From a bacterium (GTDB lineage Bacteria; Desulfobacterota; JAPLJL01), in the NCBI GenBank assembly GCA_028713675.1, contig JAQTNV010000010.1, positions 12,369-76,368 of the forward strand: a DNA stretch of 64,000 nucleotides, written 5' to 3'. Numbering within the stretch: position 1 is the stretch's first letter; every line of letters starts with the position of its first letter. Positions 8,206-54,512 of this stretch are shown in pieces. Below the pieces are notes generated by a model. The model made no database searches. It was not told the DNA's origin and saw only the letters and a program-made list of their open reading frames with translations. The translations under genes and the position numbers were made by a program.

Positions 8206-8342
8206 TCCGAGATCCTAAGTCGATCTCGTCATTGCGAGTGAGTTTTGCGAGCGAAGCAATCCCGGAAATTTAGATTGCTTCGTCATCCCGTTTTTGACGG
8301 GATTCCTCGCAATGACATTTTGTAACTTCCAATCAAAATTCT

Positions 8343-9765: not shown

Positions 9766-9918
9766 ACCGTAGGCGGTAGACGGCATACCGGGGAAAGCCA
9801 GAAGCCCTTTCTCGCGCCTTACGCCTTACCCCTCACGCCTTATGTGTGGTTTCGTTGGGCTTGAGAAAAGAAGCCCCTGCCGATTAAATTTTCTCATATA
9901 ATTCATTCGTTATCATTT

Positions 9919-9983
9919 GTCATTCCTGCGAAAGCAGGAATCCAGGAAAAATATCTGGATCCCGCATCAAGTGCGGGATGACG
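9919..9983. repeat. GAAA-loop hairpin repeat plus an adjacent inverted partner (ctggatcccgcatcaagtgcgggatgacg)
   Basis: The sequence gtcattcctgcgaaagcaggaatccag is followed by a second hairpin that ends in gatgacg. Confidence 0.65.
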
Positions 9984-24340: not shown

Positions 24341-24574
24341 ATCATAAATAATCCTCCCCTCCCTGGAGGGGAGGGGACTGAGGGGAGGGTGAACGATGCG
24401 TTTTCTCACCCTCTCCTTCATCCTCCCCCCTCAAGGGGGAGGAAAAATTTACAAATAAAAATACGACAAAGGACGGACAAGACGAGAAAAAAAGGCGGGG
24501 ATAAACCCCGCCCCTACAAAAACAATTTATTTAATAACGTAGGGGAGCCCCTGGTGGGCTCCCTCAATTTAATA

Positions 24575-30502: not shown

Positions 30503-30757
30503 AAGAAGGTGTTACATGCAGCAATTTAAGCCTTCGATATTACAGGAAAAAATGAAAAGCTCTAACATCATCAAACCCTTTGGAGTACATTAGCTTGCTG
30601 ATGCGATGCGTCCCGCCAGTGGCGGGAGGCACTCTAAAAATACTATTATGGATTGCAATAGTTTTCTGATACTCTGCAAAAGCAAGCTTTTGCGCTCCAT
30701 AAAGATATATCTGATAAGAATATTTGTAACACCCTCTAAAAACCAAAGGAGGAGATA

Positions 30758-32107: not shown

Positions 32108-32206
32108 ACGGGTCCCGAAAATGATTGTCAATATATGTTAAGATGAAAAAGAGGAAGCATTATGACTGAAGAAAACCAGAAAGATAAAGTAAAAAAGGAG
32201 GGTGGG

Positions 32207-33109
32207 ATGAATTTGTTCCAAAAGAGAATGTTTGGATCTCTTTTAGTTACCCTGGGAGTCGCGGCGCTGGTAATCCTCTCCGCCTGCGCCAAGCCCCCGA
32301 TCAAGGAAATCGCCACCGCCGAAGCGGCCCTGGAAAAGGCGCGCACGGCCGAGGCCCCCACCTACGCCCCGGAAACTTTCAAGAGCGCCGAGGACATCCT
32401 CGCCCAGGCCAAGACCGAGATGCAGAAAAAGAAATACAAACCGGCCAAGAAAGACGCCATCAACGCCCGGCTCCTGGCCGAGCGGGCCCTGGATGAGGCC
32501 GTCAAGAACAAGGCCGCCCAGGAGGCCGTACAGCCCAAAGCCCCCGGTCTGACCGAGGAGGAAAAAGCCGCCGGCCCCACTGTCCAGCCGCAGGAAATCT
32601 CGGTGGCCGAGCTCCAGAAACAGCAGACCGGGACCGGCTCCCTGGATGAAGGAATGAAGATTTCGTCCCTGGAAGCTGTCCATTTCAATTTCGACGATTT
32701 CAGCCTCTCTGAAGAAGCCCGCCAGACCCTGGCCAAGAACGCGGAATGGTTGAAAAAATACAATGTCGTGATCCAGATCGAAGGCCACTGCGACGAGCGC
32801 GGCGCCAACGAATACAACCTCGCCCTGGGCGAGAAAAGGGCCAAGACCGCCCGCGATTACCTGGTGGCTCTCGGCATTGACGCTTCCCGGCTGACGATCA
32901 TCAGTTACGGGGAAGAAATCCCGGTCGACCCCGGCAGCAGCGAAGCCGCCTGGGCCAAGAACCGGCGGGCCGAATTCATTGTCACAAAAATGAACGACAA
33001 GCAGCCGGAGACCGGTGTCAAACAGCCGGAAACCGGCATCAAGCAGCCGGAGGCCGGGATTACACAGCCGGAAACCGGCATTAAGCAGCCGGAAACCGGC
33101 AGCAAGTAG
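32207..33109 (+). CDS. pal: Peptidoglycan-associated lipoprotein Pal (OmpA-like domain) with five C-terminal KQPETGI heptapeptide repeats
   Basis: Lipobox LVILSAC. OmpA-like core (NVVIQIEGHCDERGANEYNLALGEKRAKTARDYL). RBS aaggaggg before the ATG at 32207. Tandem 21-bp repeat at 32995-33100. Confidence 0.85.
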   Translation: MNLFQKRMFGSLLVTLGVAALVILSACAKPPIKEIATAEAALEKARTAEAPTYAPETFKSAEDILAQAKTEMQKKKYKPAKKDAINARLLAERALDEAVKNKAAQEAVQPKAPGLTEEEKAAGPTVQPQEISVAELQKQQTGTGSLDEGMKISSLEAVHFNFDDFSLSEEARQTLAKNAEWLKKYNVVIQIEGHCDERGANEYNLALGEKRAKTARDYLVALGIDASRLTIISYGEEIPVDPGSSEAAWAKNRRAEFIVTKMNDKQPETGVKQPETGIKQPEAGITQPETGIKQPETGSK

Positions 33110-34126: not shown

Positions 34127-34138
34127 TCAACTGTTTAA

Positions 34139-34309
34139 GGTAGGTGGTAGGTAGCAGGTGGTAGGTGGTAGGTGGTAGGTGGTAGGTGGTAGGTGGTAGG
34201 TGATAGGTGGTAGGTAGTAGGTAGTAGGTAGTAGGTAGTAGGTAGTAGGTAGTAGGTAGTAGGTAGTAGGTAGTAGGTAGTAGGTAGTAGGTAGTAGGTA
34301 GTAGGTAGT
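34139..34309. repeat. Long tandem heptanucleotide array (GGTAGGT / AGTAGGT, about 24 units)
   Basis: About 170 bp of perfect 7-nt periodicity immediately after cpoB, bordering the AT-rich islet. Confidence 0.9.
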
Positions 34310-34356
34310 AGACCCCCGGAAACCGATTTAACTCTTTTTTAAAATTCCATTTAAAT

Positions 34357-36489: not shown

Positions 36490-36645
36490 AGTTCAAAGTC
36501 CAAAGGTCAAAGGTCAAAGTTCGAAGGAAAGATATAAAACAGCATCAGCAAGCTGATGCGCTCCAAAAAAGAAAACCCTGAATTCCGGCTTCCTCCTGCG
36601 CCGAGGCTTCGGAGGACAAGTCCGCCGGAATGACGATATTTATTT

Positions 36646-36680
36646 TTTACTGCTTACTGCCTACTCCTTACTGTTTACTG
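36646..36680. repeat. Tandem heptamer array (TTACTGC / CTACTCC units)
   Basis: Sequence ttactgcttactgcctactccttactgtttactgg. Confidence 0.7.
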
Positions 36681-36716
36681 GGAGCGAAGCTCCCTGCTGC
36701 CTACTTCTTACTGACA

Positions 36717-36741
36717 GCGCAGCCTAAAGGCTGCGGCTACC
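36717..36741 (-). repeat. REP palindrome with compensatory stem changes
   Basis: The sequence gcgcagcctaaaggctgcggctacc has the same architecture and CTACC end as the other copies. The stem is GCAGCCT/AGGCTGC rather than CAGGCT/AGCCTG. Confidence 0.6.
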
Positions 36742-36763
36742 TTAGAATGACAAATAAATATAT

Positions 36764-36806
36764 TTCAATCGTCAATCGTAAATCGTCAATCGTCAATCGT
36801 CAATTT
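36764..36806. repeat. Tandem heptamer array (AATCGTC units); a second copy lies at 36891-36922
   Basis: The sequence caatcgtcaatcgtaaatcgtcaatcgtcaatcgtcaatt is repeated about 85 bp downstream. Confidence 0.7.
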
Positions 36807-36920
36807 GCGCCTTGCGCTCTGCTTTTCGCAAGGCTAAAGCCTTGCCCTACATTTGCCCTATGCCCTTTGCGATCACAAATCAGGTTTTCACTCGTCAATC
36901 GTAAATCGTCAATCGTCAAT

Positions 36921-43959: not shown

Positions 43960-44661
43960 TTAGAATTTATTCGACAAAATCTTCCGGGAAAGCGCGGTGA
44001 TCGCCTCGGTGGGATTGATCTTCTTCGGGCATGCCTCCACGCAGTTGAAGATCTTCCGGCAGCGGAATACCCCGCTCGGATCGTTGACAATCGCCAGCCG
44101 CTCCTCCTCCGCCTCGTCCCGGGAATCGACCACGAAGCGGTAGGCCTTCAGGATGGCCGCCGGTCCCAGGTAATTCTCGTCGTGCCAGTAGCGCGGACAG
44201 CTGGCGCTGCAGGAACCGCAAAGGATGCAGGTTATTGCCTCGGACAGCAGGCGGTGTTCTTCCTGGCTCTGGGGCACCTCGCGATCGGAGGTCGGGGTCT
44301 TGTGCACCATATAAGGCATGACCGCCTTGAGCTTGGCGAAAAACGGCTCCATGTCCACCACCAGGTCGCGGATGACCTGGTAACCCCGGAGCGGCTCCAG
44401 GGTGATGACCTTGGAACGCAGTTCCTGGATCTGGGTATAACAGGCCAGGCCCGCCATCCGGTTGATCATCATGGAGCAGGACCCGCAGATCGCGCTCCGG
44501 CAGCTCCGGCGGAAGGCCAGGGTCCCGTCCAGCTCGCCCCGGACCTGGATGAGACCATCCAGGATCGTGGTGCCCTCCTGCACGTCGATCTCGTAATCCT
44601 GGTTGTACGCTTTCCGGTCTTTCTCCGGATCAAACCTTTTGATTCTTAAGATTGCTTTCAT
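43960..44661 (-). CDS. sdhB: Succinate dehydrogenase / fumarate reductase iron-sulfur subunit
   Basis: 2Fe-2S motif CRSAICGSC, 4Fe-4S motif CILCGSCSASCP, and 3Fe-4S motif CRKIFNCVEACP. Confidence 0.9.
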   Translation of the reverse strand: MKAILRIKRFDPEKDRKAYNQDYEIDVQEGTTILDGLIQVRGELDGTLAFRRSCRSAICGSCSMMINRMAGLACYTQIQELRSKVITLEPLRGYQVIRDLVVDMEPFFAKLKAVMPYMVHKTPTSDREVPQSQEEHRLLSEAITCILCGSCSASCPRYWHDENYLGPAAILKAYRFVVDSRDEAEEERLAIVNDPSGVFRCRKIFNCVEACPKKINPTEAITALSRKILSNKF

Positions 44662-44734
44662 ATTTCTCCCTGCTCTGTTTTCCCGCTCTTTATTCTCTAA
44701 CCACCAAGCTACCTAGCCACCTTGTTTTTCTTTT

Positions 44735-44766
44735 AACCGGTTACCGGTTACTTGCTACCGGCAACT
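44735..44766 (-). repeat. Intercistronic ACCGGTT-unit element (3' of the sdhA stop)
   Basis: The sequence aaccggttaccggttacttgctaccggcaac contains AACCGGTT palindromes. Confidence 0.6.
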
Positions 44767-44769
44767 TGT

Positions 44770-46482
44770 TTAGTATTTCCTCTCCTGCGGCTGATACCGG
44801 GTGATCCGGACCGGCTTGTAATCGAACCGGAGCGTGTCCCCGTCCCGGTAGACCAGGGTGTGTTTCAGCCAGTTCACGTCGTCGCGCTTGGGGAAATCCT
44901 TCCGGAAGTGGGCGCCCCGGCTTTCCTTCCGGTTGAGCGCCCCGGCGACAATCATCTCGGCGAAACCGAGAACGTTACCCAGCTCGATGGCCTCGATCAG
45001 GTCCAGGTTGAAAATCGAATTCCGGTCGATCGCCCGGATCTTCCGGTAACGCTCTTTCAGGGTCTGGATCTTCTCCTGCACCTGCCGCAATCCCTCTTCC
45101 TGGCGGAAGACCCCGCAGCCCGTGGTCATGGACGCCTGGAGCTCCCTCTGGATGGCCGCCGGCATTTCCGAGCCGTTCTTGGACCAGATCTCGTCGATCC
45201 GTTTCTGGGAATCATCCGGGGAATCTTCGGGCAGGGAAGACAAAACCTCGTCGCGCAGGAACCTGACGGCCGAGCGCCCGGCCCGCCGTCCGTAAAGCGT
45301 GGCCTCCAAAAGGGAATTGGTCCCGAGCCGGTTGCCTCCGTGCACCGAAACGCAGGCGCATTCCCCGGCGGCATAAAGTCCGATTACCTTCTTGTCCTTC
45401 CCGTCCAACAGCACCTCGGCGTCATTGTTGGTGGGAATCCCCCCCATGGAGTAATGGGCGGTGGGCTGGATCGGAACCGGGGCGGTCACGCAATCGACTC
45501 CCAGATATTTCTGGGCCAGGTCCTTGATTTGGGGGATGCGCTCCAGGATCTTCTGCTCGCCCAGGTGCCGGATGTCCAGGTAGACATAATCCTGCCCGTT
45601 GATCCCGCGGCCCTCGTCCACCTCGGTCTGGATCGAGCGGGAGATCACGTCGCGGGGGGCTAGTTCCATCTTGCCGGGGGCGTATTTTTCCATGAACCTC
45701 TGGCCTAAGTTGTTGGTCAGGTAAGCCCCTTCCCCGCGGGCGCCTTCCGAAAGAAGAATCCCCTGTTTATAAAGACCGGTGGGATGGAACTGGACGAATT
45801 CGATATCCTCAATCGGGATCCCGGCCCGCGACGCGAGGGCCAAGCCGTCTCCGGTGTTGGCGAGCGCGTTGGTGGTAATCTTGTAGGCCCGTCCGTAACC
45901 GCCGGTGCCCAGGATCACGGCCTTGGCGTGGAAGACATGGAGCCCGCCTTTCTGCGTGTCCCAGGCCACCACCCCGCGGCAGACCCCGTCGCGGATGATC
46001 AGGCTCATGGTGTAGAACTCGGAGAAAAACTTGACATCCTGCTTGATGCACTGTTCGTACAGGGTGTGGAGGAGAACATGGCCGGTGTAATCCATGCAGT
46101 ATACCGCCCGGGGCCGGGAATGCCCGCCGAAGGGGCGCTGGGCCAATCGTCCGTCGGCCATGCGGTCAAAGGGAACCCCGAAGTGCTCGTACTCATAAAT
46201 GATTTCGGGGGCTTCCGAGATCAGGATCTCGATCGCGTCCTGATCCCCCAGGTAGTCGCTCCCCTTCACCGTGTCGAAGATATGCTCTTCGAGGGAATCG
46301 GGGGAGGCGTTGCCCAGGGCCGCCGCGATCCCGCCCTGCGCCGCCCCGGAATGGGAACGGGAGGGATAGACCTTGGTCAGGACACAGGCTTTGGAAACCG
46401 GGGCGACTTCGAGAGCAGCCCGGAGGCCGGCCAATCCGGCACCCACTACTAAGACGTCATACTGATGTTTTGTCGCTTTCAT
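44770..46482 (-). CDS. sdhA: Succinate dehydrogenase / fumarate reductase flavoprotein subunit
   Basis: Motifs [26 protein letters not shown] (His for covalent FAD) and HYSMGGI. Confidence 0.9.
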
Positions 46483-46598
46483 TCAACCCCCAAATTTCTA
46501 TTTTCGAATTTCGAAATCCTATACCCTACCCCCTCTCCCTTCCTTCCCCCTCGACAGGGGAGGGCTTGGGTGGGGGTGAATTCGTTTATTTGTTTTCC

Positions 46599-46988
46599 CT
46601 ACATCTTGAACGGGATGACCGTCAAAAGCCCCAGGGTGAGGATAACCCCGCCCAGGCAGAGCAGCGCGGAAACCACCGTCACCTTGAGCCAGTCCTTTTT
46701 AATGTAGTCCGAAGCGATCATCCAGACCCCGTTCAGGCCGTGAAATGTCCCCATGACCAGGAAGAGGGAATCAATAATCTTCCATAAGGGGGTGGCCACT
46801 CTCTTCGCCACCAGCTCATAGGAAAGTTCATGCCCGCCCAGAGTGAAGTGCTCCACCAGCATGTGGACCAGCAGAAGCGCAAGCAGAAGGAAGCCGGTGA
46901 GCCTTTGCAGGAACCAGACATAAACGCCGCCGTTTTTGTAACTGTATTTGTGCATGTTCCTGACCTTCTTTTCGGTTAAGGTAACCAA
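46599..46988 (-). CDS. sdhD: Succinate dehydrogenase hydrophobic membrane-anchor subunit
   Basis: 129 aa with three TM helices. Sits between sdhC and sdhA. Confidence 0.6.
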   Translation of the reverse strand: MVTLTEKKVRNMHKYSYKNGGVYVWFLQRLTGFLLLALLLVHMLVEHFTLGGHELSYELVAKRVATPLWKIIDSLFLVMGTFHGLNGVWMIASDYIKKDWLKVTVVSALLCLGGVILTLGLLTVIPFKM

Positions 46989-47389
46989 CTAGGGATAAGA
47001 CCTTTAAAAATCTCGTTATCAAAAAGCTGCCACGGGAAGAGCTCGATCCCTCCAAGCACACACAGGACGAAACTGAGCCCGATCACCCACCAGAACATCT
47101 GCTCCTGGTGCCGTGCCCCGATCCCCAGATCCACCAGCAGGATCCGCACCCCGTTCAAAGAATGATAAACAATGGCCGCCAGGAGGCCGATCTCCCCGAT
47201 CCGGAAGGCGGGATGCATGAGGAGCTTCATCATCTGGTCAAACGCCTCCGGGCTTTTCCCCAGATGATGGGTAACCCAGACGTGGATCGTCAGGTAGAAG
47301 ATCAGGGCTCCCCCCGTGATCCGGTGCAGGAGCCAGGCAATCGTCCCCGAGTGCCAGGCGTACTTCGTGAATGGAATGTCCAGTCTCAT
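46976..47389 (-). CDS. sdhC: Succinate dehydrogenase cytochrome b subunit
   Basis: 137 aa with TM helices and conserved His residues (LHRITG, HHLGKS, YHSLNG). Confidence 0.65.
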   Translation of the reverse strand: MRLDIPFTKYAWHSGTIAWLLHRITGGALIFYLTIHVWVTHHLGKSPEAFDQMMKLLMHPAFRIGEIGLLAAIVYHSLNGVRILLVDLGIGARHQEQMFWWVIGLSFVLCVLGGIELFPWQLFDNEIFKGLIPSWLP

Positions 47390-47411
47390 AGTCTTACCTC
47401 TCTTCGTATTA

Positions 47412-47446
47412 TTGATAGCCGGTTATCGGTAACCGGCGACCGGTTA
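47412..47446 (-). repeat. Intercistronic ACCGGTT-unit element (abutting the fumB stop, before sdhC)
   Basis: Sequence agccggttatcggtaaccggcgaccggttac. Confidence 0.6.
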
Positions 47447-48001
47447 CTTCTGGTATTTTTTTACCCCTTCCTCGTAAAGGTCCGCCCCGGTGACATCGTT
47501 GATCACCACCAGGGGGAAATCCTCCACCTCCAGCATGTTGACGGCTTCCGGGCCCAGTTCCGGGTAGGCAATGACCTGGCCTTTTTTCACCACCCGGGCG
47601 ATCAGGGCGGCCGCGCCGCCGGTGGCCCCGAAATAGACCGCCTTGTGCTTTTTCATCGCCTCGATCACTTCCTTGCCCCGCGAGCCCTTACCGATCATTC
47701 CCTTCAGGCCCTTCTCGATCAGGCGGGGGGCGTAGGAATCCATCCGGTAGCTGGTGGTCGGCCCCACCGAGCCGATCGGATTTCCCGGGCGGGTCGGGGA
47801 AGGCCCGGCGTAGTAGATCACCGTGCCGGCGATCTCCATCGGGGTTTTTTCGCCCTTGTCCATGGCATCGACGATCCGCTTGTGCGCCGCGTCACGGGAG
47901 GTATAAATCACCCCGGAGAGCAGAACCCGGTCCCCGATTTTCAACTTGGAAACCTGTTCGCTCGTGAGCGGAGTTTTGAGTTTGATCGCTTTTTCTTTCA
48001 T
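47444..48001 (-). CDS. fumB: Class I (Fe-S) fumarate hydratase, beta subunit (C-terminal domain)
   Basis: Motif GTVIYYAGPSPTRPGNPIGSVGPTTSYRMD, typical of Fe-S hydro-lyase beta subunits. Confidence 0.85.
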   Translation of the reverse strand: MKEKAIKLKTPLTSEQVSKLKIGDRVLLSGVIYTSRDAAHKRIVDAMDKGEKTPMEIAGTVIYYAGPSPTRPGNPIGSVGPTTSYRMDSYAPRLIEKGLKGMIGKGSRGKEVIEAMKKHKAVYFGATGGAAALIARVVKKGQVIAYPELGPEAVNMLEVEDFPLVVINDVTGADLYEEGVKKYQK

Positions 48002-48040
48002 TTTTCTTCCGTTTTAAAGTCTTCTGGCCTTCGAGCTTCT

Positions 48041-48892
48041 TTAAATGACCGCCTCTTTATGCCGGTGCGAATGGCAATTGATGTTGATCGCCACCGGGAG
48101 GCTCGCGATGTGGCAATTCGTCATTTCGATATGCACCGCCAGGGCGGTGGTCCGTCCTCCCAGCCCGGCCGGCCCGATCCCCAGGCGGTTCACCTTTTCC
48201 AGGATCTCCTGTTCCAGGTTGGCCAGCTCGAGACTCGGGTTGGGGTTGCCGAGCGGCCGCAGGAGCGACCGCTTGGCCAGGATGGCCGACTGTTCCAGGT
48301 TGCCGCCGATCCCGACCCCGACGACAATCGGGGGACATGGATTGGAGCCGGATTCCCGGACCCGGTCCACCACCAGTTTCTTCACGCCTTCCACCCCGGC
48401 CGCCGGGGGCAGGAGCTGCACCCGGCTCATGTTCTCGCTGCCTCCCCCCTTGGGGGCGCAGACGATATGGATCTTTTCTCCCGGAACGATCCGGACATGC
48501 AGGATGCAAGGGGTATTATCCCCGGTATTCTTCCGGGTGAAGCAATCGCAGACCGACTTGCGGAGAAAGCCCTCCTTGTAAGCCTGCCGCACGCCCTCGT
48601 TGACCGCCTCTTCCAAACTTCCCCCCACCAGGTGCACGTCCTGGCCCAGGTCGATGAAAACGACCGCGAGGCCGCAATCCTGGCATAGCGGGTAGACTCC
48701 CTCCCGGGCAATCTTGGCGTTCTCGATGATTTCATCCAGGATCGCCACCCCGATGGGGGACTCTTCCGCTTTCCGGGCCCGGTCCAGGGCCTCGATCACA
48801 TCCTCGCCCAGGTTGTAGCAGGCCGATTGGAAAAGCTCCCGGAGCTTCGCAGTTATTTCTTTTACTTGGATTTCTCTCATTTTGTTCGTCAC
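48041..48892 (-). CDS. fumA: Class I (Fe-S) fumarate hydratase, alpha subunit (N-terminal domain)
   Basis: Fe-S hydro-lyase alpha motifs (CQDCGLAVVF, ...CHSHRH). GTG start at 48892. Confidence 0.85.
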   Translation of the reverse strand: MTNKMREIQVKEITAKLRELFQSACYNLGEDVIEALDRARKAEESPIGVAILDEIIENAKIAREGVYPLCQDCGLAVVFIDLGQDVHLVGGSLEEAVNEGVRQAYKEGFLRKSVCDCFTRKNTGDNTPCILHVRIVPGEKIHIVCAPKGGGSENMSRVQLLPPAAGVEGVKKLVVDRVRESGSNPCPPIVVGVGIGGNLEQSAILAKRSLLRPLGNPNPSLELANLEQEILEKVNRLGIGPAGLGGRTTALAVHIEMTNCHIASLPVAININCHSHRHKEAVI

Positions 48893-48919
48893 CGGTTTCC
48901 GGTTACCGGCTACCGGTTA
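48893..48919 (-). repeat. Intercistronic ACCGGTT-unit element that fills the entire mdh-stop to fumA-start spacer
   Basis: Sequence cggtttccggttaccggctaccggtta. Confidence 0.6.
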
Positions 48920-49858
48920 CTAGAATCCTTTGCCTTTCATCTCCTGGACGGTTTTCTTGACCGAATCCAGCGACTTCTGGAAGGCCGCCTTTTCCTCTGC
49001 GTTGAGGTCGATCTCCACCACCTTCTGCACGCCCGTGGCGCCGAGAACGGCGGGAACGCCCATGAAATAACCGCCGACGCCGTATTCCTTCTCGCACCAG
49101 ACCGAGCAGGGCATGACGCGCCGCTGGTCATTGAGGATGGCCTCGGCCATCGTCACCGTGGCGCTCCCGGGGGAGAAGTAGGCGCTCCCGGTTTTGAGCA
49201 AAGCCACGATCTCGCCCCCGGCCTTCCGGGTCCGGTCAACCATGGCCGCAAGCCGGTCCTTCGGGATCAGGTTTTCCACCGGCACTCCGTTCACCTGGGT
49301 CCGCCGGACGAGCGGGACCATGTCGTCGCCGTGACCGCCGAGCACCAGGGTCTGCACGTCGCGCGGGCTGACCTTGAGCTCCATCGCGATGAAACAGGCG
49401 AAGCGAGCCGAGTCGAGCACCCCGGCCGAGCCGATCACGCGGTTCTTGGGGAAGCCGGTGACCGAGGCGGTCAGGTAAACCATCGAATCCAGCGGGTTCG
49501 AAACCACCAGGACAATCGAATTGGGGGCGAATTTCTTGATCGCCTCCGCGACCGGTTTCACGATCTTGATGTTGGCGTCGAGCAGGTCCTCCCGGGTCAT
49601 CCCCGGCTTCCGGGCCATCCCGGCGGTGACGATGACCAGGTCGGACCCGGCGATATCGTCATACTTGGTCGTGCCCATGATATCCACATCGATCCCCGAG
49701 AACGAGCGGCATTCCATCAGGTCGAGGGCCTTGCCCTGCGGCATCCCCTCCACGATATCGGTGATGACCACATCACCCAGGTTCTTGACCGCCGCCACAT
49801 GGGCGCAGGTCTGCCCCACGTTCCCGCCGCCGATTACCGCAATTTTCTTTCTAGCCAT
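48920..49858 (-). CDS. mdh: Malate dehydrogenase (LDH-like MDH)
   Basis: Motifs KIAVIGGGNVGQT, VSNPLD and GGHGDDMVP. Confidence 0.9.
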   Translation of the reverse strand: MARKKIAVIGGGNVGQTCAHVAAVKNLGDVVITDIVEGMPQGKALDLMECRSFSGIDVDIMGTTKYDDIAGSDLVIVTAGMARKPGMTREDLLDANIKIVKPVAEAIKKFAPNSIVLVVSNPLDSMVYLTASVTGFPKNRVIGSAGVLDSARFACFIAMELKVSPRDVQTLVLGGHGDDMVPLVRRTQVNGVPVENLIPKDRLAAMVDRTRKAGGEIVALLKTGSAYFSPGSATVTMAEAILNDQRRVMPCSVWCEKEYGVGGYFMGVPAVLGATGVQKVVEIDLNAEEKAAFQKSLDSVKKTVQEMKGKGF

Positions 49859-49966: not shown

Positions 49967-51121
49967 TTAGAACGCCACCTGGGCCTGGGTATAGAGCGTA
50001 AAAAGGTTCTCCGGGTCCTTCAGGTCTTCAACGGCATTGAGGGAAAGCATGGCGTTCGTGCCGATAATGTAATAATTAACCCCTCCGGTCAGCCGGATGA
50101 TTTCGTCATTATCCCCATCCAGGTTCGGCTCATAGTACTCGACGCGCACCATGGGTTCAACCTTCGGCACCACCTTGTAACCCGCTTGCCCATAGACAGC
50201 AATGCCGTTGATGTTATCAGGATCGTTCTCATCCATCGCGTAGAGGATCTCGGCCAGGGCGGTCAGATTGCTGACCGTTGCCCGGAGGAAAGCCCCGGCC
50301 CGGAAACCCGTAAGATAATCGCTGGTTCCGGTCACGCCCGTCCTCCCGATAGTCGCATATACCGCCGTTTCGATCTTGTCATTAGGTTTAACATTGAGCC
50401 GGACGAGGAAATCCTTCCAGTTATCCGCGTCCTTCCAGGTGTTCTGGCAATTTTGGGAAACGCTATTGTAAATCCCGACGTTCAGGCTGGAAATCCCGAG
50501 CTTGGTGGTGCTCTGAATTCCGACCTGGCGCCACATCGCATACTTGGAGGTCAACAGCGGATAACTGACAAAATCAAGCTTGGAAACCAGCTGGGGCTGG
50601 TAGTAAGTGAAATTCGGGAGGAACCGCCCGACCTGGATTTCGGTTTGGGGAAGAGCATTGACGAAAATTAACCGGGCATCCAGAAGCCAGGGGACCACGG
50701 TACCACTACCCCCCTGAACTGCATCACCCTGGAATACATATTTGACCTTGTCGGGCAGAATGCTCCCCATCAGGAATATCCGGGCCCGGCTCATATTGAA
50801 CGAATTATTCAGCTCGGTATCGTAACCAACCGTATCATCTCCAACCTGGGTTTGGGCAAGAGTGAAATATGCCTGCAGAATAGCGGAGATCTTCATGTCC
50901 CCGATCCCTACCATCACTCCGCTTCCTTTCGGCGGTTCCGGGGCGGGAGCCGGCTGGACAACGGGAGCGGGTTCCGGTGCAGGAGCGGGTTCCGGTGCCG
51001 GCTGGACTGCGGGAGCGGGTTCCGGTGCCGTCTTTCCTTTTCCCGCCGCGCCGGCCGATAACGGCAATGAAATAACCAAAGCCAATGTCAGCAGACTGAC
51101 AATTCCGAATAACCTTTTCAT
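49967..51121 (-). CDS. Putative outer-membrane beta-barrel porin with a Pro/Ala-rich (PEPAPA) linker
   Basis: GGAGGA RBS and ATG at 51121. Signal peptide MKRLFGIVSLLTLALVISLPLSAGAA. Repeats PEPAPAVQPAPEPAPAPEPAP. Alternating beta pattern ending ...TQAQVAF with a terminal Phe. Confidence 0.55.
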   Translation of the reverse strand: MKRLFGIVSLLTLALVISLPLSAGAAGKGKTAPEPAPAVQPAPEPAPAPEPAPVVQPAPAPEPPKGSGVMVGIGDMKISAILQAYFTLAQTQVGDDTVGYDTELNNSFNMSRARIFLMGSILPDKVKYVFQGDAVQGGSGTVVPWLLDARLIFVNALPQTEIQVGRFLPNFTYYQPQLVSKLDFVSYPLLTSKYAMWRQVGIQSTTKLGISSLNVGIYNSVSQNCQNTWKDADNWKDFLVRLNVKPNDKIETAVYATIGRTGVTGTSDYLTGFRAGAFLRATVSNLTALAEILYAMDENDPDNINGIAVYGQAGYKVVPKVEPMVRVEYYEPNLDGDNDEIIRLTGGVNYYIIGTNAMLSLNAVEDLKDPENLFTLYTQAQVAF

Positions 51122-51278
51122 CGTCTCCTCCCTTTCTCTGTTTCCGATAAAATTTAACATTTATTACTTGTCCAATCGCTTTTCACCCGCCAGCTTCACT
51201 GCTAGGGATGACCAGCCGGGATTATCTTTATTAGATTTAAAATGGGATGTCAAGAGATGTATACAACAAGCGGTCGTT

Positions 51279-52295: not shown

Positions 52296-52372
52296 TGAGA
52301 TTCAGGGTTTAAGGCTCAAGACTCAAAGTTCAAAGAGAGTCATTTTACCTTTGAGCTTTGACCTTTCACCTG
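52296..52372. repeat. CAAAGGTCAAAG / CTTTGACCTTTG imperfect inverted repeat; other copies lie at 9330-9395, 29570-29665 and 36485-36530
   Basis: AAGGTCA-type heptamer units in direct and inverted arrangement, lying in 5' regions of hypE, parA/9514, tolA and gatB. Confidence 0.55.
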
Positions 52373-53782: not shown

Positions 53783-54253
53783 TCACCATTCTTCCAAATT
53801 ATAAACGGTCGATCCCTTAAAAGGATACCCCTTACTATCCGCCGCCAAACCCTTTCGAACAGGATTATTTAAGATGTATTTTACCTGCTTGAGAATATCT
53901 TCATCTTTTCTTAGGACATGATCATAAAAATCTTTTTGCCATTTAATGCCGGGATGATTTCGCCCCAACCAGTAACCGGTTTTTTGCTTGAAGTTTTTGA
54001 TAAATTTTAATAGATCAGATTCATCGGACTTACCCTCCACTAAAACATGAAAATGATCCGGCATAAAAAGAAAAACATGGGCTTCGCATTCTTCTTTCTT
54101 TAAAATATTGATTAACAGGTCAGAGAAAATCCGAGTAATATTTTCCTGAGCAAATAGAGGATACCTCTCTGCAATACAAACCGTAAAAGTAATTATTATT
54201 TTTCCTCGATATAACTTCGTTGATAAACGGTGTCTGCGTTCTCGGATTTCCAT
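53783..54253 (-). CDS. REP-associated tyrosine transposase (RAYT; IS200/IS605-like Y1 HuH transposase)
   Basis: 156 aa. HuH motif FMPDHFHVLV. Catalytic Tyr / NP motif KYILNNPVRKGL. N-terminal YRGKIIITFTV. Flanked on both sides by GTAG-type REP palindromes. Confidence 0.8.
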   Translation of the reverse strand: MEIRERRHRLSTKLYRGKIIITFTVCIAERYPLFAQENITRIFSDLLINILKKEECEAHVFLFMPDHFHVLVEGKSDESDLLKFIKNFKQKTGYWLGRNHPGIKWQKDFYDHVLRKDEDILKQVKYILNNPVRKGLAADSKGYPFKGSTVYNLEEW

Positions 54254-54261
54254 TCAAAACC

Positions 54262-54512
54262 CGCAACCTGCCTGTCCTGAGCTTGTCGAAGGGAAGGTTG
54301 CGCCTACCAAACATTCAAAATCTTATTCTTGTATCGGTAGCCACAGGCTTCAGCCTGCGCAATTCCGCAACCTAAAGGTTGCGCCTACCAAACATTCAAA
54401 ATCTTATTCTTGTATCGGTAGCCGCATGCTTCAGCCTGCGCTATTCCGCAACCTAAAGGTTGCGCCTACCAGAATGTAATTATTTTTACGCAGGCTAAAG
54501 CCTGCAGCTACC
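54262..54512. repeat. BIME-like cluster of six REPs in alternating orientation, including an approximately 84-bp direct duplication
   Basis: REPs at 54262-54308 (-, long loop), 54336-54360 (+), 54365-54389 (-, stem GCAACCT/AGGTTGC), 54417-54441 (+), 54446-54470 (-) and 54488-54512 (-). Each has a GGTAG or CTACC terminus. Confidence 0.75.

Follow-up and report, generated by a model that had tools for sequence, protein, structure and literature searches.

Tandem repeats with a unit of seven nucleotides have been known in bacteria since 1990 (Mazel 1990, summarised in PMC4679880 and PMC4692102), and according to the same summaries heptanucleotides form the most abundant class of long simple sequence repeats (SSRs) in many bacteria (Mrazek 2007). 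Geobacter metallireducens carries 49 elements composed of four tandem heptanucleotides with the consensus GGACCGG (PMC2700814), TAACTGA heptamer repeats occur in marine Beggiatoaceae, Cyanobacteria and Bacteroidetes (PMC4679880), and repeats of GGGAATC and GGGGAYT are found in Xanthomonas and Nostoc (PMC4692102). The subject of the present work is a set of heptamer arrays, here called ACCGGTT arrays, that occupy three intercistronic spacers of a tricarboxylic acid (TCA) cycle operon in a 64,000-nt stretch of a Desulfobacterota contig (JAQTNV010000010.1, positions 12,369 to 76,368 of the forward strand), which is referred to below as the window.

Hairpins located behind stop codons provide a second set of precedents. 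The repetitive extragenic palindromic (REP) sequences and bacterial interspersed mosaic elements (BIMEs) of enterobacteria stabilise the mRNA upstream of them, as at malE-malF. In addition, work by Liang, Rudd and Deutscher in 2015 is said to have found that translation of a gene is reduced when a REP lies within about 15 nt of its stop codon. Ribosome termination structures (RTSs) are post-stop hairpins that govern re-initiation where spacers are at least 25 nt long (Chemla et al., 2020, PMC7518266). Judged by analogy, RTSs are the closest experimentally grounded counterpart of the hairpins described here, and the enterobacterial REP elements are another.

The ACCGGTT elements are one family in a lineage-wide population of arrays with a period of seven (occasionally eight) nucleotides that sit next to stop codons and are quickly replaced. 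Taken as a whole, the evidence makes it probable, though far from secure, that they are labile heptanucleotide arrays whose hairpins have generic effects on mRNA, and that no dedicated regulator of the TCA operon is involved. Each of the three elements consists of four tandem heptamers in a single orientation, with the sense consensus CCGGTAA, and they begin 0, 0 and 8 nt 3' of the mdh, fumB and sdhA stops, respectively, all on the minus strand. Array 1 (48889..48919) reads TAA followed by CCGGTAG CCGGTAA CCGGAAA CCGGTGA, lies directly 3' of the mdh stop TAG (48922-48920) and is separated from the fumA ATG by the 8 nt CGAACAAA (cgaacaaa). Array 2 (47416..47443; CCGGTCG CCGGTTA CCGATAA CCGGCTA) begins at the first base 3' of the fumB stop TAA (47446-47444), and the 26-nt stretch tcaataatacgaagagaggtaagact, which contains the Shine-Dalgarno (SD) sequence GAGAGG, leads from it to the sdhC ATG. 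Array 3 (44734..44761; CCGGTAG CAAGTAA CCGGTAA CCGGTTA) starts 8 nt (acaagttg) 3' of the sdhA stop TAA (44772-44770) and shares the sdhA-sdhB spacer with a period-8 array, GGTGGCTA GGTAGCTT GGTGGTTA G (44697..44721, minus strand). One heptamer is degenerate in each of arrays 2 and 3.

An initial annotation of this DNA had pointed to three elements of the same orientation directly 3' of the three stops, and these are real and well above chance: the pattern CCGGN3CCGGN3CCGG (CCGGNNNCCGGNNNCCGG) with at most one mismatch has 10 matches in comparison with 2.15 expected, a number reached in none of 100 shuffles, and TAACCGGT has 9 matches in comparison with 0.98 expected. What had been taken for one type of element of about 27 nt is better seen as a 7-nt unit repeated four times in tandem, and arrays 1 to 3 show the features that characterise heptanucleotide arrays (head-to-tail units, a 7-nt period, at least three to four units and a length beyond chance). 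The same annotation had equated the element with an entire mdh-fumA spacer of 27 nt and started fumA at a GTG. That start has to be replaced: the gene almost certainly begins at ATG 48880, because alignment to the ATG-started protein (MREIQVKE...) begins at its residue 1 for each of the 160 FumA homologues found, half of them on genome contigs and half on metagenome contigs (80 each), and the fumA ORF of a sister species (species B, below) begins at the equivalent ATG, while GTG 48892 merely falls inside the last repeat unit of array 1. The mdh-fumA spacer is therefore 39 nt long, of which array 1 occupies 31; the fumB-sdhC and sdhA-sdhB distances are 54 and 108 nt.

These three junctions are only a small part of the heptamer arrays of the window. 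In a scan of the whole window for arrays of at least four copies and at least 80% self-match at periods 4-15, with shuffled controls, period 7 yielded 17 arrays where 0.05 were expected, and the other periods were near background. The non-coding DNA (8552 nt in 45 spacers) contains 28 period-7 arrays that cover 998 nt, or about 12% of it, in comparison with 0.34 arrays expected; period 6 gave two arrays and period 8 one. The arrays are thus predominantly intergenic (28 of 33 in the non-coding 14% of the window), and 17 of the 45 spacers hold at least one. By means of Tandem Repeats Finder and our own scans at least 10 unit families were recognised, and units recur across loci: ACCGGTT at three loci and in a coding variant, AGTTTCG at four (3' of tolQ, pal, ndk and sucD), TAGGGCA/CATAGGG at four (3' of an acyl-CoA dehydrogenase gene and of an aminotransferase gene, and in the pnp-gatB and korA-korB spacers) and CTTTGAA at at least four, including positions directly 5' of gatB, hypE and parA. 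ATTGACG forms two arrays, GTCATAG an inverted pair in the spacer between a TPR gene and mutS2, and GGTAGGT a near-perfect microsatellite of 25 copies (34138-34314) located 11 nt 3' of the ybgF stop. The ACCGGTT family itself is confined to the mdh-fumA, fumB-sdhC and sdhA-sdhB junctions within the 64 kb, apart from the related coding repeat in pal. A device specific to the TCA operon is not supported, as the elements form part of a genome-wide population of period-7 arrays whose many unrelated, mostly non-folding units abut stops too.

The placement of the arrays follows the 3' ends of genes. In co-directional spacers 13 of the 20 arrays begin no more than 13 nt 3' of the upstream stop, in comparison with 3.8 expected under uniform placement, and 200,000 simulated random placements never gave as many; equal closeness to the downstream start was found for 4 of 20 (3.8 expected). 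Arrays are present in 4/5 convergent and 1/5 divergent spacers. Whichever DNA strand they lie on, AGTTTCG and TAGGGCA arrays read in the sense direction, while the GC skew is negative throughout the window; array orientation is tied to transcription, not replication. The three ACCGGTT copies fall within five consecutive spacers of the 45 (P about 0.018), which together with the repeated use of the unit GGTGGYTA by species B indicates local copying. Sense units contain a stop triplet (UAG, UAA or UGA) in 7 of the 10 post-stop families, in comparison with 28.5% expected (P = 0.008). Outside this lineage, period-7 arrays are also present at loci from Deltaproteobacteria, Planctomycetota and other metagenome-assembled genomes (MAGs), and identical units in unrelated MAGs make up 9 pairs in comparison with 2.5 expected, a modest excess.

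Two simple accounts of the unit sequence were set aside. A three-frame stop trap, in which period-7 units would close all reading frames, is unsupported, only about 6/16 stop-adjacent arrays of other lineages conforming to it. Avoidance of ACCGGT or CCGG in relation to restriction-modification was rejected, as ACCGGT is undepleted in the window (26 sites, 13.4 expected).

The ACCGGTT family is, by structure prediction, distinctive solely through its self-complementary unit: since the palindrome ACCGGU within it allows every unit to pair with every other, the arrays fold, with predicted hairpins that begin 0-10 nt 3' of the stop. The stable stem-loops anticipated in the initial annotation were recovered when each spacer was folded, with predicted energies of -18 kcal/mol (z -3.5) for array 1, -14.5 kcal/mol (z -3.0) for array 2 and -16.2 kcal/mol (z -3.6) for array 3. 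The whole sdhA-sdhB spacer has a predicted fold of -25.2 kcal/mol (z -2.65), in which the period-8 array GGTGGCTA would be able to pair with array 3 through G-U pairs. The local folding energy difference (dLFE), defined as minimum free energy minus the shuffle mean, was computed for the 40 nt 3' of every stop codon in the window (about 50 genes), and the ACCGGTT junctions take ranks 1 to 3 with -11.8 (array 1), -9.0 (array 3) and -8.6 kcal/mol (array 2), followed by -5.9 for the next gene. In each of the three spacers the predicted fold of the sense strand is more stable than that of the antisense strand. Other post-stop arrays are mostly unfolded (dLFE about 0), and the overall link between arrays and folding is weak, the mean z being -2.9 in spacers with arrays and -1.5 in those without them, a difference for which a few spacers are responsible. 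Both the structural feature of RTSs (negative dLFE within about 40 nt 3' of the stop), by prediction, and their spacing of at least 25 nt are found at the three junctions.

As first described, the arrays are intercistronic, since neither a terminator nor a promoter is present at them on the sense strand. An intrinsic (Rho-independent) terminator or attenuator was rejected because the sense strand is without a U-tract, the tails being GACGAACAAA, CUAUCAAUAA and UUAAAAGAAA, and no promoter consensus was found on the sense strand at the arrays. A search of the whole window with Rfam 15 at the gathering score gave no matches, and the single match obtained at E up to 1 in 44400-49100 was judged to be due to chance. 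In the mdh-fumA spacer the sole SD-like motif, GGUGA (-6 kcal/mol), belongs to the last repeat unit and lies inside the 3' arm of the predicted hairpin. This geometry fits the translational coupling that had been suggested for the spacers. The idea that arrays substitute for SD sequences is suggestive for gatB, hypE, parA and fumA; many array-less genes lack an SD too.

The organism is uncultured and belongs to a poorly sampled lineage, since its GatB is only about 60% identical to that of named Deltaproteobacteria and Nitrospirae; the closest FumA among GTDB species genomes is 67% identical, and among named relatives the nearest, with protein identities of about 60-67%, are Deltaproteobacteria/Thermodesulfobacteriota MAGs. 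Comparisons were made with three related species: species B, from four samples (L081, L161-163; FumA 94% and GatB 87% identical to the window), species C (L164; GatB 93% identical) and species D (L165; GatB 73% identical). Coding DNA of the window and species B is 83-90% identical, four-fold degenerate sites (1,436) are 74.7% identical, and BLAST alignments are broken at almost every spacer. In the mdh-fumA spacer of species B array 1 is absent and the period-8 arrays GGGAAGCT and AGCGTCCA are found instead; in the fumB-sdhC spacer (ATGACCA/AGTTCCA)n and an inverted copy replace array 2. Both sets of replacement arrays begin right at the conserved stop codons. They have no local post-stop hairpin, and the sole pairing predicted is a long-range one of an array with its inverted copy. 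Units are shared between spacers in species B as well: GGTGGYTA is used in two spacers of its TCA operon, and the period-8 unit of the sdhA-sdhB spacer appears also in its fumA-fumB spacer. A terminator-like hairpin with a U-run (GGTCGAGCTTGCTCGAC TTTTT; L081 ~8270-8300) lies between fumA and fumB of species B; the corresponding junction of the window is unstructured.

The sdhA-sdhB spacer is different. Array 3 and the period-8 GGTGGCTA array are kept in species B at 71 of 78 positions (91%), above the identity of four-fold sites (P = 2e-4). Three substitutions in array 3 remove two pairs of the window helix, and a hairpin in another register is predicted at -9.2 kcal/mol (z -3.1); the array re-forms its pairing between other units, which therefore reflects unit redundancy and not covariation. 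Covariation in this hairpin was rejected, as the species B substitutions break pairs and no compensatory change that would support a specific helix was seen. The same three junctions are predicted to be structured in species B (z -3.2, -4.3 and -3.9), a coincidence that is not significant because 7 of 14 species B spacers are structured (P about 0.1 for three of three).

Elsewhere in the genome the same turnover is evident. Junctions of 0 nt in the tol-pal cluster of species B correspond to array-filled spacers of 87-170 nt in the window and to different arrays in species C, and the spacers compared in species D are compact and have no arrays. The AGTTTCG array 3' of pal has five units in the window and four in species C. 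Species B and C both retain the CTTTGAA array located 5' of gatB, and the rest of the pnp-gatB spacer is unalignable. Among the four strains of species B, which are 99.5% identical, there are zero indels over 18.3 kb, so the arrays are apparently neither rapidly slipping nor hypervariable contingency loci; 96 of the 100 single-nucleotide polymorphisms (SNPs) are coding and 4 non-coding (13.7 non-coding expected, P = 0.0013). Intergenic DNA, with its arrays, thus varies less than coding DNA in these strains, a deficit that may be an artefact of metagenome consensus assembly. The arrays appear to be steady within a species and are replaced wholesale between species.

Several described systems resemble these arrays in part. 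The short tandemly repeated repetitive (STRR) sequences of cyanobacteria have the units CCCCAGT, TTGGTCA and CAACAGT, which are printed in neither PMC4679880 nor PMC4692102. Like the arrays of the window, STRRs and long SSRs consist of head-to-tail 7-nt units that are mostly intergenic, with a few families at many loci and an excess specific to period 7; in the strict sense the window units are not STRRs, their consensus matching none of the three, and, unlike STRRs and long SSRs as described, they abut stops in sense orientation and include a self-complementary unit in ACCGGTT. The G. metallireducens elements likewise have exactly four heptamers, a CCGG core and multiple loci, including some within genes, and a regulatory RNA role was proposed for them. 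When compared by consensus only, their GGACCGG does not match the unit found here, TAACCGG (GGA instead of TAA), and adjacency to stop codons is not described for them (PMC2700814). The TAACTGA repeats share with the present arrays their 2-6-copy intergenic organisation in transcribed operon spacers, the rarity of an adjacent canonical SD, a unit common to distant lineages and a proposed post-transcriptional role. They are placed just 5' of start codons, whereas here only the CTTTGAA family is so placed and ACCGGTT lies just 3' of stops, and the Beggiatoaceae have one dominant unit in contrast to the many units seen here. In Xanthomonas and Nostoc some of the GGGAATC/GGGGAYT repeats also form inverted pairs able to form stem-loops, but these G-rich units form G-quadruplexes, to which the units of the window are not prone.

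With the RTSs the arrays share a stable structure immediately 3' of the stop, the predicted dLFE of -8.6 to -11.8 per 40 nt being well beyond the E. coli mean of -4; RTSs are defined by structure and experiment, while here a predicted structure is supplied by a repeat array. REP/BIME elements are similarly repeated, hairpin-forming, located in intercistronic or 3' regions near stops and variable between relatives. They are, however, single imperfect palindromes mobilised by REP-associated tyrosine transposases (RAYTs), whereas ACCGGTT forms tandem heptamers. Heptamer arrays are thus already known as a kind of repeat; the quantitative stop adjacency, the sense orientation and the pattern of turnover are unmentioned in the papers compared.

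The gene order of the operon according to Pfam is mdh, fumA (alpha), fumB (beta), sdhC, sdhD, sdhA, sdhB, sucC and sucD, followed by korDABG, ndk, pnp and gatB. On the minus strand, mdh encodes malate dehydrogenase (48920..49858; Ldh_1_N and Ldh_1_C), fumA the alpha subunit of a class I fumarate hydratase (48041..48880; Fumerase, start ATG 48880) and fumB its beta subunit (47444..48001; Fumerase_C). They are followed by sdhC (46976-47389; Sdh_cyt), sdhD, probably at 46599-46955 (Sdh_cyt; ATG with an AAGAAGG SD, a start backed by a 118-aa ATG-started orthologue in L081), the flavoprotein gene sdhA (44770..46482; FAD_binding_2 and Succ_DH_flav_C) and the iron-sulfur subunit gene sdhB (43960..44661; Fer2_3 and Fer4 families). 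Upstream of mdh lies a 397-aa ORF (49967-51160, minus strand) that has no Pfam match and appears from its sequence to be fast-evolving, being 49% identical to its species B orthologue in comparison with 84-97% for its neighbours.

Arrays are found also inside ORFs. In pal (32162-33109) a CCGG-heptamer repeat (32998..33108, plus strand), identified by Tandem Repeats Finder, sequence and translation, has a 21-nt super-unit CAAGCAG CCGGAAA CCGGCAT in about five copies and encodes in frame a 39-aa C-terminal tail, (KQPETGx)5, that is missing from the orthologues of species B, C and D, which end in ...EFIVKK. It looks as if a heptamer array had here replaced the stop codon and become part of the reading frame. 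In HypD (52306-52372) the repeat (TCAAAGN)4 encodes the last ~16 residues, beyond the Pfam domain, and (CTTTGAN)4 follows 3' of the stop; a hairpin of -22.6 kcal/mol is predicted for these inverted arrays, with the stop codon in the loop.

Other repeat families share the spacers of the window. The pnp-gatB spacer (36490-36920, 431 nt) contains five heptamer arrays, which belong to four families (ATTGACG twice, TAGGGCA, CAGTAAG and CTTTGAA), together with REP-like palindromes, and its CTTTGAA array touches the ATG of gatB, which is without an SD. At the convergent ybgF spacer, the species C orthologue measures 39 nt and species B holds unrelated sequence. Between hypF and hypC lies an IS200-like, RAYT-like Y1 transposase ORF (53783-54253, minus strand; Pfam Y1_Tnp), flanked by an 81-nt tandem repeat (54294-54512) with the palindromes GGTAGCCGCAGGCTTCAGCCTGCG and CGCAACCTAAAGGTTGCG; GGTAGCCGCAGGCTTCAGCCTGCG is seen again 3' of the parA and hypF stops and in the spacer between the 397-aa ORF and mdh, and forms a separate REP-like family. 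The ACCGGTT arrays do not belong to a REP/BIME-RAYT system, as the palindromes flanking the Y1_Tnp ORF (GGTAGCCGCAGGCTTCAGCCTGCG) are different and ACCGGTT forms tandem repeats. The tolA-tolB spacer (30503-30757, 255 nt) has terminal inverted repeats, AGAGGGTGT...ACACCCTCT, and looks like an insertion of a miniature inverted-repeat transposable element; it is common to species B (265 nt), and the species C spacer is 18 nt. A further intergenic family of purine/pyrimidine-rich palindromes (CCCTCCCCTGTCGAGGGGGAAGG-like) occupies several spacers of the window (46483-46598, 24355-24443) and species B (L161 ~9850-9950).

Viral contigs contain CCGGTWR arrays at about twice a rough chance estimate, including long (CCGGTAG)n tracts. 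One of them (L235) has a (CCGGTAG)n tract of more than 35 copies, and in IMGVR_UViG_3300032053_000201 (39 kb; L180, L208, L231, L236) (GCCGGTT)n is found at no fewer than six loci, at least one of them intercistronic between a stop and an SD. Inverted (TTACCGG)3...(CCGGTAA)3 pairs are repeated along one contig in L167, L210 and L212, and in L191, from the same sample as L163, (CCGGTAG)4 stands beside (CATTGAG)4.

In the favoured explanation, slipped-strand or template-switch copying of the DNA would generate and spread the arrays, with a preference for a 7-nt step and for nearby spacers, and they would persist where selection tolerates them, i.e. on the 3' side of genes. The ACCGGTT hairpins may then act generically on the polycistronic mRNA in the manner of RTSs or REP elements, insulating cistrons or limiting re-initiation and slowing the 3'-to-5' decay of the upstream cistron. 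At mdh-fumA the hairpin could hide the weak SD GGUGA, which would become accessible once the stem is opened by a ribosome that terminates on mdh. A number of points weigh against this explanation. The functional effects that we infer for the hairpins, processing and stability included, derive from modelled structures and from analogy; slippage alone leaves the shared units at separate loci, the sense orientation and the stop adjacency unexplained; the complete lack of indels among the species B strains is awkward for a pure slippage origin; and conservation of the sdhA-sdhB copy above that of neutral sites (P = 2e-4) hints at specific constraint on that copy.

Since only one of the three copies is shared with species B and the other two are species-specific, a dedicated and conserved regulator of the TCA operon is unlikely. 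The more particular proposal of the initial annotation, that the stem-loops are selected, operon-specific processing or stability determinants on which the expression of mdh, fumAB and sdh relative to one another depends, has in its favour that these are the three strongest post-stop structures predicted in the window, the ACCGGTT family occurs at these junctions only within 64 kb, the same junctions are structured in species B despite different sequences, and copy 3 is conserved at 91% where four-fold sites reach 74.7%. We nevertheless regard it as an unlikely explanation. Copies 1 and 2 are not conserved in species B, where half of the spacers are structured anyway and the replacements lack a local hairpin, compensatory substitutions are not seen, and the elements form part of a generic array population, so a device peculiar to the TCA operon is not what the wider comparison describes. 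The opposite extreme, in which the arrays are neutral simple-sequence DNA, slippage by-products tolerated 3' of genes with hairpins of no meaningful effect, is also unlikely, if slightly easier to entertain. It would accommodate the diversity of units and their wholesale replacement between species, the array-less spacers of the more distant species D, the 3' preference (4/5 convergent and 1/5 divergent spacers), as with other tolerated intergenic insertions, and the absorption of arrays even into the ends of pal and hypD. It agrees less well with a sense orientation held on both strands, with a stop adjacency far above uniform placement, with the retention of copy 3 and of the CTTTGAA array 5' of gatB in two to three species and with the depletion of non-coding SNPs among species B strains, and the predicted hairpins of -14 to -18 kcal/mol, 0-10 nt past the stop, are in the range that affects re-initiation experimentally (PMC7518266).

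A third kind of account ascribes to the repeats themselves a role in RNA or DNA recognition. That they are multivalent sites at which an oligomeric RNA-binding protein would contact the mRNA in a 7-nt register, with ACCGGUU as one site class, is very unlikely. HutP binds UAG-N4 repeats and TRAP binds GAG repeats, and a period strictly of 7 with a variable unit, the sense orientation, the typical number of 4-6 units and the stop triplets in 7/10 post-stop families are in line with such a protein; yet at least 10 unrelated units would demand many proteins or one without sequence specificity, other lineages do not show the excess of stop triplets (about 6/16 stop-adjacent arrays), and the ACCGGUU arrays are predicted to be double-stranded and not an accessible single strand. 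Still more remote, to the point of being barely credible, is the view that the ACCGGT palindromes are DNA operators for a transcription factor acting on the TCA operon. ACCGGT is a perfect 6-bp palindrome present two to four times per site, and heptad direct repeats can bind regulators, as is reported for ToxR at the TTTTGAT repeats upstream of ctxAB (bioRxiv 10.1101/2021.05.14.444153). The sites lie, however, within an operon right after stops with no promoter-like sites nearby, two of the three have no counterpart in species B although its operon is the same, sites that follow each other at 7 bp face different sides of the DNA helix, and single ACCGGT sites show nothing unusual elsewhere in the window.

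A bolder possibility, which we hold to be improbable and put forward as speculation, is that heptamer arrays, far from being passive microsatellites, are modular post-stop mRNA elements which an active process copies, in the direction of transcription, from one cistron junction to others nearby. If so, self-complementary units such as ACCGGUU would be ready-made ribosome-termination or decay-barrier hairpins that an operon could gain or swap in a single step. The adjacency to stops, the sense orientation, the units shared within an operon and the stability within a species alongside wholesale replacement between species would then be explained together. Such elements could also give a function to the unexplained excess of heptanucleotides in bacteria.

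Whichever mechanism applies, there is a lesson for annotation, as arrays can capture start calls, as with the false GTG start of fumA, and can lengthen ORFs, as with the tails of Pal and HypD. The TCA locus offers a compact and testable case, with three junctions in one operon, a self-complementary unit and a sister species in which two of the three arrays have been swapped. Stop adjacency, an orientation that follows transcription, the lack of indels within a species and replacement between species provide handles for distinguishing mutational debris from mRNA elements.

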